Assembly: GCF_053078305.1 (NCBI RefSeq)
Contig: NZ_CP166879.1
DNA length: 64,000 nt
Strand: one strand, 5' to 3'
How positions within the stretch are numbered: the first letter of the stretch is position 1; every line of letters starts with the position of its first letter. Made by a program: the position numbers. Shown in pieces: positions 9,001 through 12,000 of the stretch.

Positions 9001-12000
9001 CCAGCCATGATTCCGCCAGTCACAATTACCTGATTTAGCAAGCTGGTGCGGGTTCTTAACCTGAGGAAAACAATACAGGGAATAAGTGAAAAAATAATCA
9101 GAAGAATTGATAATACTATAACACTCAACACCTGCCAGAACTCGTTTATTCCTTCCGGGAATTCCAACGTATGAAGAAATAACTCAAGAGGAATAATATA
9201 TATGCAGGCTGCGTGGGTGAATAGCGTTGACTGTACAATATGCATGGAAAGAAACTTTTTGATCTGCTTCCACTTACCCTCTGTGCTTATCTGTCTATAA
9301 GTAATAGAGCCATTGAGACACAGAGAAAGTATAAAACTGCAAATCCAGATAATGCTTAACTGAAGTAGCACATATTGTTCAATTTCTTTTCCTGCGTTGT
9401 ACATGAGGAAAAAATAACCAAAAAATATCAGTGTTGATAATAGCGAGGTCAGAAGAACGATTTTGATGTTGTTTTCCGTCAGTTCATTCCGGAAATCACT
9501 TTCCCCTGGATAATTGGAAATATAGAATCCTGCCACTAGTGAGGGCATAAATAACGCCATGCAAAATAGGAGTACGCTGATACAAGCAAAGACCATCAGA
9601 TAACTGAACAATGATGAAAAAGAAATACTGTCAAAAAAAAGTCCTGTTTGTCCAATACGCGCAAGATGTGACCATATAAACAATGCTACAATAGAAGTTG
9701 ACGCGATCGGTGTAAGGATTGTTAAAAACCAAGCACATAGTTTTATAAAATGTTTGTTTACTCTGTAATTTTCTATATTTTAGTGTCCATTCAAAGTTTG
9801 ACATATGATCTAGCTAATGACTCCATTTTTGGGCATTGCTTACCAACATACCTCTTATGTGTATTACTGTGAAGGAGAACGATGAATAGCGACTATTCAC
9901 GTGGATCTCCACAACAACCATCAATATTCCAGCCATTATCATTCCCGGTATCCTTACCGGCATTACCTGTAGAATCGGTTATTGTTGTTGCCCTATAACA
10001 CACTTTTGTGGCTATAACGTTTATAGCTATCGACAAAAAACCATATTAATTCTTTTGGAAAAAAGAAAATAAGGTATCCATATAACAACACCAAATATTC
10101 CACTCACTAATAATCTGATATTATCTGAATCCAGCTGTACGTCAAAAAGAATAGCCGGTAATAAAGTAAGATAGAGAGCAATAATCAGTCCTGTTGCATA
10201 ATAAGCGATCATGGCTTTTCGAGTTCCTTTTTTGCGTCTGAAAAACAACCACGTTGCATAAAGGGAAACAATGAATCCACATATCAGCAACACAAATGCC
10301 CCCATAGCGTAATAAGATAAAAAGCCAGTTTCATTGAAATAATTGAATGCAGTTATGGTAAAACTGTAAAGTTCAATAGTACTACCAATAACACCCAAGA
10401 TAAGTCCCAGAGCAGGAAGATATAATAGTCCATTAATTTTACTTAACTCTTCTCTTTCACAGGCATCACACAATCCCGACTCTTTGTTTGCTTCTGACAT
10501 TTTACATTTTATACATTCCATTTTTTATTCCATTATTCATTGCGTTACGATAATGTTTAGTTTTTTAAACATCCCCCACCACATGTATGGGGATTGTTGC
10601 AAATCTCACTTAGGATCTGATGGTGTTTTCTTACGGGAGTTAAATTTATCTATTAAATTAAATACTATTGTAGCTAATGTTATTGCTGTTCCTGCTATAC
10701 AACCAAAAACGATAGCTCTTTTAAACTGATTCACTGGAAAATAAAACCCATCACCTTTAAAAAATAAAAGATTGAAACCGCCCCTCCCAGAAATAGTAAC
10801 ATGACTATAGATGATAAACAGCTATAAAGGAACAATATCACATAACTATATAGTTGTTTCATTTTTTCTTATCCTCTGACGAACCTTTCGGTTTATTGAG
10901 TTATTGGCTCCTTCAGGTAACTCACCTTTGGCAAGTTTATCCAGTCCTGCCTGCTTCTGTTCCGAGGTGAGATTATTGGCATCAGCATACTGATTCCATG
11001 AGGAAACCGCCTGACCATAACTCACCATTCCTGATGGAAGACTGAGCGAGTTATTCTCAACAACAATCCTAACCGCAAAGGTTGGGATTGTTGTTAATCT
11101 CACTCAGGATCTGATGGAGGTTTTTTACGAGAATTAAACTTATCGATCAGATTAAAAACTATCGCTGCTAGTGTTATCGATGTACCTGCTATGCACCCAA
11201 ACACAATAACTCTTATCATTTGGTGGGTCGGGAAAAAAAAGAATCCTTTTGTTAGGTAAATAAATAAAGCTCCTCCCCCCATCAAAAGAAATCCACTGAT
11301 GATACAAAAGAGGCATGCATATATGAACAATACAATGTAAGCAATCATTTCCCCTCCTCCTTCTTCGCGCTAGAAGAGAACTGATTATTACTACTTGCTT
11401 CTTTTATATATCCACCAAGAAATTCACTACCAAAAGATCCTGTCGCATCAAATATAAATCCCGGAAACTCTTTCCCAGTAACTGAGTTTACTATTCCGGG
11501 AGCATATACTCCAAATGCTCCACCCAATCCGGCCCCGGCAGCAGCCCCTCCAATAGAGCCTGTATTTGGACCATCGGTAAAGAATGCACCACCCATCGCA
11601 ATTCCGACGTTTTGTCCGACAGTTCTCCCCGGCGCAAGCATACCCGCAATGCCTGAACTGGCACTGCTTTTCCAGTCCCAGTTTTTGTTTTCATTACCTG
11701 GCTGGCTTAAATCAAACCACTGGTAACTTCCATTGGCTATCTCCGCGACGACTCCACCACTGACCATTTTACCGACCGAAGCAGCAGGCCCCAGATACCA
11801 TGCCCCGGCAATCATTACACCATCCTGATATCCATCCACGATCACTTTCGTGATATTGGTGCTGTCCGGCATATCACCTTTCGCTATCTTATCCAGTCCA
11901 GCCTGTGTTTGTTCCGGTGTCAGATTATTGTCCACCGCGTACTTGTTCCATGATGTAGCCGCAGCAGCATTGCTTTCAAAACCATCACCGAAGCTGAGCG

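Follow-up and report, generated by a model that had tools for sequence, protein, structure and literature searches.

A Probable Relic of a Displaced cdiA-CT/cdiI Module Downstream of an Intact cdiBCAI Locus in Escherichia coli

Introduction

Rhs loci are known to contain displaced C-terminal tips and orphan toxin/immunity pairs: when a new tip is installed at a conserved motif, the old one is displaced, and silent remnants persist downstream. The scaffold of these systems is the Rhs/YD shell, and the motif that demarcates the tip is PxxxxDPxGL. The counterpart of this situation in contact-dependent inhibition (CDI) was described by Poole et al. (2011, PLoS Genet, PMC3150448), who found orphan cdiA-CT/cdiI modules 3' of cdiBAI loci and compared them with Rhs; the idea that orphans are the leftovers of the acquisition of new cdiA-CT/cdiI pairs is found in the same work. 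The orphan of strain EC93 encodes an active toxin that is neutralised by its own immunity protein (PMC3150448).

The CDI toxins of interest here are the group 3 ionophores reported by Halvorsen et al. (2024, PLoS Genet, PMC11630599), in which an AcrB-dependent entry domain is followed by a five-helix ionophore domain and which depolarise target cells; as these authors state, the family has no Pfam model. The cognate CdiI proteins are small (72–100 residues) and hydrophobic, and form two-helix membrane hairpins that are specific to their cognate toxin. Neither orphans nor the DUF2569 gene found after these modules are discussed in that paper. We describe here a stretch of 64,000 nucleotides of contig NZ_CP166879.1 (hereafter, the window), in which the segment 10606..11103, just downstream of a complete CDI locus, is very probably a dead, displaced orphan cdiA-CT/cdiI module.

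Results

The Resident CDI Locus

All the genes of the CDI locus lie on the minus strand, in the order listed below with the evidence used to identify each of them.

20843..22582, minus strand: cdiB, outer-membrane two-partner-secretion transporter (Pfam ShlB, E 2e-109; POTRA_2; POTRA_3)
20306..20833, minus strand: cdiC-like acyltransferase gene in the cdiB/cdiA interval (Pfam HlyC, RTX-toxin acyltransferase family, E 8e-31)
11345..20290, minus strand: full-length cdiA, 2981 aa (TIGR01901 TPS domain, TIGR01731 FHA repeats)
VENN at 12013..12002 to the stop at 11345, minus strand: resident toxin region, CT1 (PT-VENN, PF04829, ending at VENN)
11100..11348, minus strand: cdiI1, intact resident immunity gene, 82 aa (ORF; two hydrophobic segments by hydropathy)

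The E. coli cdiBCAI locus upstream of the remnant is intact. Judging from its sequence, it has every feature that we looked for in a CDI (cdiB/cdiA/cdiI) two-partner secretion locus: an Omp85-type TpsB transporter beside cdiA (ORF 22582..20843); a large CdiA with a TPS domain, FHA repeats, and a PT-VENN domain preceding a variable C-terminal toxin; and a small immunity gene immediately 3' of cdiA. This last gene, cdiI1, has a start that overlaps the cdiA stop codon according to the ORF calls, and it is homologous to published group 3 CdiI; its product shares 79% identity with the CdiI encoded on the Enterobacter sp. 18A13 plasmid and 37% with WP_001222075.1, a group 3 CdiI. CT1 shares 58% identity with a published ionophore CT of group 3, that of strain 94-3024.

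Profile libraries were of unequal help. NCBIfam gave no match for CdiI1, CdiI2 (see below), CdiB, CdiC, or a 364-aa ORF; CdiB and CdiC were identified through Pfam, and the only Pfam match to CT1 was a glycine zipper below threshold (E 0.28). Group 3 membership was assigned through WP_073488148.1, WP_001222075.1, and strain 94-3024 (Table S1 of PMC11630599); the window's own accessions and peptide strings were not found in the supplements of that paper. The chromosome of E. coli O22:H8 strain 154 matches positions 10480..12100 at 100% identity but differs by 1–5% in the cdiA body, and the window is therefore probably from another strain. A literature search returned no paper tying O22:H8 to contact-dependent inhibition.

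The Downstream Remnant

The PGAP annotation of the identical RefSeq record places no feature from cdiI1 to the DUF2569 gene. The interval and its borders contain the following features.

11059..11095, minus strand: strong hairpin 3' of cdiI1 (−27.3 kcal/mol, z −7.1; inverted repeat I5)
10902..11061, minus strand: orphan cdiA-CT stub, comprising VENN and the opening ~53 codons of a CT2-type toxin (97.5% identity, 156/160, to CT2 of RM11911)
10859..10901, minus strand: deletion junction (10902/10900) and the final 13 codons of CT2, out of frame (alignments to 1303 and RM11911)
10731..10862, minus strand: cdiI2 5' fragment, first transmembrane helix, 43 aa, with a T6 run at 10764..10759 (alignments)
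10606..10734, minus strand: cdiI2 3' fragment, second transmembrane helix and C-terminal tail, 42 aa, in the original frame (81% nucleotide identity to the 3' half of cdiI1)
10574..10592, minus strand: weak hairpin 3' of cdiI2, followed by TTTAAAAAA; counterpart of the cdiI1 hairpin (z only −1.2)
10027..10521, minus strand: DUF2569 membrane-protein gene, marking the 3' end of the module (named DUF2569 by PGAP)

The original prediction, made from the sequence alone, was that a second VENN after cdiI opens a truncated CT-like ORF followed by a frameshifted cdiI copy, and both observations hold, on the minus strand. The second VENN-coding site, GTTGAGAAYAAY, lies at 11061..11050 (−), 3' of cdiI1 and its hairpin; GTNGARAAYAAY occurs twice in the whole 64 kb, against 0.28 occurrences expected. 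An ORF opened mechanically across this VENN spans 11103..10846 (85 codons), and the sole in-frame start available to the stub is a mechanical GTG overlapping the cdiI1 stop codon, with no real initiation signal. The sequence 5' of the orphan VENN is unrelated to cdiA, being the cdiI1 hairpin, and the stub itself amounts to the N-terminal half of the entry domain; the pre-toxin domain is absent. As for cdiI2, it is split into two ORFs in different frames (10862..10731 and 10734..10606).

Comparing 10540..11110 with 11040..12100 by blastn yielded significant similarity between the remnant and the resident module in two blocks: VENN and 141 nt (72% identity, E 2e-16), and the last 131 nt of cdiI, including 20 nt beyond the stop codon (81% identity, E 3e-32). 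An independent repeat search recovered the same blocks (D1, 74% over 179 nt, spacing 494; D2/D4, spacing 952), and the difference in spacing between them (458 nt) corresponds to the absent toxin domain. Over its full 160 nt, the orphan stub is 72% identical to the start of CT1. The figure of ~75–80% identity first proposed for the two cdiI sequences suits their 3' halves (81%) but not their 5' halves, where only about 45–50% of nucleotides are identical, nor the global alignment, at 65% (170/260 columns; score 70 vs. −44 ± 7 for shuffles). Between the two modules, identity amounts to 73% for the toxins and 58% for the immunity proteins.

Intact Relatives in Other Genomes

A search of complete E. 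coli genomes showed the remnant to be 98% identical to a distinct allelic module, CT2/cdiI2, so that “copy”, as the remnant was first called, is a loose word: it is not a copy of the resident module. The match falls in two pieces with ~455 extra bases between them in RM11911, MSI001, C10, 1303, and several STEC plasmids, and the 3' cdiI2 fragment is 98–99% identical to the cdiI2 of other strains. Intact versions do exist in related strains, as anticipated: the undeleted module was present in 27 records, and CT2/cdiI2 in at least 38 complete E. coli genomes. In RM11911 and MSI001, CT2 ends a full-length cdiA of the window's class and is followed by an intact 85-aa cdiI2; upstream of VENN, the cdiA genes of these two strains and of 2012C-4431 share 91–93% nucleotide identity with the window over 3 kb.

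The cdiI2 protein of C10 and MSI001 is WP_073488148.1, i.e., the immunity protein of the PLATE1_D7 pair of group 3 CDI ionophores (Table S1, PMC11630599). CT2 is 66% identical to the group 3 CT of 94-3024, the matches of CT1 and CT2 have E-values of 1e-82 to 2e-98, and the glycine zipper G-x3-G-x3-G-x3-G-x3-G is readable in both sequences; by these features, CT1 and intact CT2 are predicted to be group 3 toxins. The same holds for the cognate CdiI, as the intact allele is WP_073488148.1 itself, the repaired window allele differs from it by 1 aa, and two hydrophobic segments are present. Of the group 3 toxin, the window stub retains only about 53 entry-domain residues.

Two Lesions in the Remnant

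Two lesions separate the remnant from its intact relatives. The larger one is a deletion of 454 nt relative to strain 1303 (locus L005, 3162..3615) and RM11911 (locus L002, 3248..3702), with the junction sequence GGAGCCAATA/ACTCAATAAACC at 10902/10900 of the window and a microhomology that is at most an imperfect 4 nt. It takes out CT2 residues ~54–205, that is, the second half of the entry domain and essentially the whole ionophore domain, glycine zipper included, and it shifts the frame, the stub terminating in GANNSINRKVRQRIRKNETTI and a stop codon. Only 5 out of 5,426 complete E. coli genomes have this 454-nt deletion. Alternatively, the gap may mark the place where two different orphans were joined by recombination.

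The other lesion is a single base. At 10764..10759, cdiI2 has a run of six T, where all eight undeleted modules read have seven; according to hydropathy, the run (codons 34–35) falls at the end of the first hydrophobic helix, at the inter-helix loop. Restoring one T gives an 85-aa protein with a single difference, V28A, from WP_073488148.1. The T6 run and its linked SNPs were found in five of the loci read (three distinct strains), and the T6 allele in 11 independent complete genomes (99–100% gap-free matches); since T6 and the linked SNPs recur in independent genomes, the frameshift is not an assembly artefact. The T6 haplotype is shared, at 99% over 883 nt and with the DUF2569 gene included, by six other genomes, among them O178:H19 2012C-4431 and the chromosome of 2014C-3097; in these six, the T6 cdiI2 follows an orphan toxin with a different entry domain and an intact ionophore domain. 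Because T6 is shared with this ionophore-retaining orphan of 2012C-4431/2014C-3097, the frameshift probably preceded the 454-nt deletion, unless recombination has spread T6. None of the loci read was the predicted intermediate, in which T6 would accompany a CT2 module without the deletion. The length of the span (815 vs. 816 nt) was considered as a T6/T7 marker and rejected, as L009 and L010 combine T7 with a different toxin frameshift.

One has to keep in mind that the T6 allele, in its two contexts and 11 genomes, carries no further disabling mutation. Its persistence could reflect either recent decay or a residual function.

Module Boundaries and the DUF2569 Gene

The last three bases of the 3' arm of the cdiI1 hairpin are the GTT Val codon of the orphan VENN. 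Homology to the CT2 modules starts exactly at GTTGAGAATAA (the GTT of VENN), and the 40 nt upstream are the cdiI1 hairpin; this hairpin/VENN boundary is thus the junction of the resident and displaced modules. This start of homology at VENN supports the view, already part of the original prediction, that the orphan cdiA-CT remnant and its frameshifted cdiI come from cassette turnover at that point. Related modules, both those of CT2 type and the relative of CT1 on the Enterobacter sp. 18A13 plasmid, have the order cdiI, hairpin, TTTAAAAAA, DUF2569 gene; because of this shared order, the window appears to consist here of a CT1-cdiI1-hairpin unit that directly abuts a VENN-CT2-cdiI2-hairpin-DUF2569 unit, with no extended homology at the joint.

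A consensus scan found no intrinsic terminator at either hairpin. The cdiI1 hairpin has no U-tract, and transcription may therefore read through into the remnant. We dropped the reading of this hairpin as an RNA gene, as Rfam gave nothing credible in 9900..12100.

The DUF2569 gene occupies the same place after cdiI in loci L003, L005, L006, L008–L011, and L014, and it travels with CT/cdiI modules of this type. Its stop codon is separated by just 4–8 nt from the following VENN in strains 1303 and 2012C-4431. A literature search for DUF2569 returned one paper, on an unrelated subject.

Discussion

A Proposed History of the Locus

We propose that the cdiA scaffold of this lineage once ended in the group 3 ionophore toxin CT2, followed by cdiI2 and the DUF2569 gene, an arrangement of the ancestral type that is still found in RM11911 and MSI001. 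A mosaic cassette made of CT1, cdiI1, and the terminator-like hairpin would then have been fused to cdiA at the VENN-coding point, shifting the old cassette downstream with nothing retained 5' of its VENN. Without a secretion scaffold and a start signal, the displaced toxin would have been silent, and cdiI2 would have been the only part of possible use, against neighbours armed with CT2. This gene would have been lost in turn when its T7 run, situated at the inter-helix loop, contracted by one base, and the 454-nt deletion would finally have eliminated the entire ionophore domain with its glycine zipper, together with half of the entry domain.

We infer the direction of the replacement from the distribution of the two modules. 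Of 5,426 complete E. coli genomes, just 5 contain sequence specific to CT1/cdiI1, always with the same remnant; as CT1 is so rare (5 genomes) and CT2/cdiI2 is found in 38 or more, the comparison favours CT1 as the more recent arrival and CT2 as the resident that was displaced. The closest relative of the CT1 cassette lies on an Enterobacter plasmid (sp. 18A13), and CT1 is itself a mosaic: nt 1–210 are 93–98% like the Enterobacter and 1303-o2 type, nt 211–450 are 80–92% like CT2, and the rest, including cdiI1, is 77–88% like the Enterobacter type.

Three of the five deletion-bearing genomes have also lost cdiB, cdiC, and most of cdiA. The junction was read in STEC1585, where a clean 10,731-bp deletion (window 11996..22726) has taken cdiB, cdiC, and cdiA up to six codons past VENN, leaving the remainder of CT1, cdiI1, and the remnant; OkiPb01714 and OkiPb01696 give the same truncated match, with the same query start position as STEC1585.

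Alternative Explanations

Displacement was one of two origins offered at the outset, the other being duplication, and it is displacement that stands. The units are homologues arranged head to tail, with toxins 73% and immunity proteins 58% identical, as would be expected if CT1/cdiI1 had been duplicated in place and the downstream unit had then diverged and decayed. However, the remnant is 98% identical to modules of other strains and only 65–81% identical to its neighbour, and the entry domains are of different types, the CT2 stub resembling 94-3024 and CT1 resembling the Enterobacter/1303-o2 type; divergence this deep cannot arise in place while the remnant stays 98% like alleles found elsewhere, which makes an in situ tandem duplication highly improbable. 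It is hardly credible, either, that the frameshift is a homopolymer error of sequencing or assembly and that cdiI2 is in fact intact. Errors of this kind typically affect one base of a T-run, but linked SNPs accompany T6 in independent complete genomes that several laboratories produced, and T7 was read correctly in eight other loci. The comparative data effectively exclude both in situ duplication and sequencing error.

Another possibility, to which we give little weight, is that the T6 form of cdiI2 is useful as it stands, either because two peptides of one helix each form a split immunity protein or because the T-run is a reversible switch that can restore CT2 immunity under attack. The frameshift sits exactly in the loop between the hydrophobic helices, the two ORFs overlap by a GTGA stop/start, one added T gives a protein 1 aa away from a published CdiI, and the allele, free of any other lesion, has been kept in 11 genomes and two orphan contexts; if true, such a reading would explain the persistence of an otherwise unblemished T6 allele. 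Against it, no good ribosome-binding site precedes the GTG, a run of six or seven T is short for efficient slippage, the cognate toxin is deleted or truncated in the same lineages, PGAP leaves the gene unannotated, and a recent origin would explain the near-identity of the alleles equally well.

A dead, displaced module thus remains our preferred reading. The remnant region most likely makes no functional product, because the stub lacks a scaffold, the pre-toxin domain, a credible start, and the toxin domain, and because the immunity gene is split. A residual role is plausible only as a transcribed spacer between cdiI1 and the DUF2569 gene.

The locus offers a base-resolved case of CDI cassette turnover, with a named intact parent, both lesions defined, and a junction exactly at VENN, and sister genomes illustrate the following step, in which cdiB, cdiC, and most of cdiA are lost and cdiI1 is kept. 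It also indicates that a strain can lose its immunity to a toxin even though that toxin is still in circulation among cattle-associated E. coli. The DUF2569 gene that accompanies ionophore modules is a side lead, so far unstudied.

Comparison with Known CDI and Rhs Systems

The remnant shares several traits with the orphans of PMC3150448: a cdiA fragment lies 3' of cdiBAI, directly after cdiI, starts at VENN, and has no translation initiation signals; and other strains (RM11911, MSI001, and others) carry this module as the end of a full-length cdiA. A cdiI-type sequence also comes next, although in split form. It differs from them in that the orphans tested in that work were functional pairs, whereas the window has lost the toxin domain (454 nt deleted, including the GxxxG zipper segment), and with it any active toxin, and its cdiI-type gene is split by the T7-to-T6 frameshift, a pseudogene by sequence; moreover, it keeps no cdiA sequence 5' of VENN. 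On these grounds, the remnant would belong to the orphan cdiA-CT/cdiI class only as a decayed relic.

With respect to the group 3 pairs of PMC11630599, the intact relatives of the remnant carry exactly the CdiI of the PLATE1_D7 pair, from which the repaired cdiI2 of the window is one residue off, and the stub matches the N-terminus of the entry domain; unlike these pairs, the window has no five-helix ionophore domain and cannot encode a full CdiI. The turnover logic is the same as in Rhs loci, with a TPS filamentous CdiA as the scaffold and VENN as the motif. The remnant is, in the end, an ordinary and well-understood kind of relic, and it leaves the current view of CDI unchanged.

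DUF2569 Gene and Module Organization

Downstream of the immunity gene lies a membrane-protein gene for which the ionophore paper (Halvorsen 2024, PMC11630599) has no mention:

10027..10521, minus strand: DUF2569 membrane-protein gene, 164 aa, with a CxxC...CxxC motif at the N-terminus

The order cdiI, hairpin, and then DUF2569 gene is common to modules of the CT1 type (Enterobacter plasmid) and of the CT2 type, and the gene is found, besides the window, in eight of the loci compared from other genomes (L003, L005, L006, L008-L011, and L014). As it is placed after cdiI and the hairpin, with only 4-8 nt from its stop codon to the next orphan VENN in strains 1303 and 2012C-4431, the DUF2569 gene behaves as the third gene of the CT/cdiI module.

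Loss of cdiBCA in Sister Genomes

A clean 10,731-bp deletion, equivalent to window 11996..22726, takes out cdiB, cdiC, and cdiA until six codons beyond VENN in STEC1585 (L004); the remainder of CT1, cdiI1, the decayed CT2/cdiI2 remnant, and DUF2569 are kept. The weapon is gone, and the immunity gene is preserved. Microhomology at the junction, which was read directly in STEC1585 only, is limited to a CAGC-like motif. The matches of OkiPb01714 and OkiPb01696 are truncated in the same way and, from their coinciding start, we infer that both strains would carry the same deletion.

Recombination and Decay

Compared with strain 154, the cdiA body (window 12250..16100) shows a divergence of about 1-5% in each 250-nt segment, whereas window 8500..12000, which spans CT1, cdiI1, the remnant, DUF2569, and a 364-aa ORF, is nearly the same, with just 1-2 differences. 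The contrast suggests that recombination may have occurred within cdiA or that the 3' block may have moved. The resident toxin is itself composite:

11345..12013, minus strand: CT1, a mosaic in three parts

The entry domain matches the Enterobacter/1303-o2 type at 93-98%, the central 240 nt match CT2 at 80-92%, and the C-terminus, together with cdiI1, matches the Enterobacter type at 77-88%, a pattern that points to recombination inside the toxin gene.

Related modules illustrate other fates:

3052..3414 (L009 and L010, from plasmids carried by 2012C-4502 and 2014C-3097): cdiI2
4076..4597 (L003) and 2508..3029 (L011): T6-linked orphan toxin, 2012C-4431 type

On the two plasmids, a TGA-to-TGT change abolishes the stop codon of cdiI2, giving a 120-aa product that extends into the DUF2569 gene, and a frameshift disrupts the orphan toxin 5' of cdiI2; this is another decay route for the same CT2/cdiI2 module. 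The T6-linked orphan toxin, named "polymorphic toxin type 25" by PGAP, has a different entry domain and a premature stop (GAG to TAG) 5 codons short of the normal end.

Genomic Context and Locus Type

The neighbourhood comprises the following features:

8589..9683, minus strand: 364-aa multi-pass membrane ORF downstream of the module, with no family match in NCBIfam
about 6470..8500: ykgO/ykgM-type L36/L31 paralogues and a TraG-like conjugal transfer gene, beyond the 364-aa ORF
20306..20833, minus strand: HlyC-family acyltransferase gene (cdiC-like), between cdiB and cdiA

The CDI locus appears to be located in an integrative element. Since the cdiC-like gene lies between cdiB and cdiA, the locus is of the cdiBCAI type, in contrast to the cdiBAI organization of EC93-type loci.
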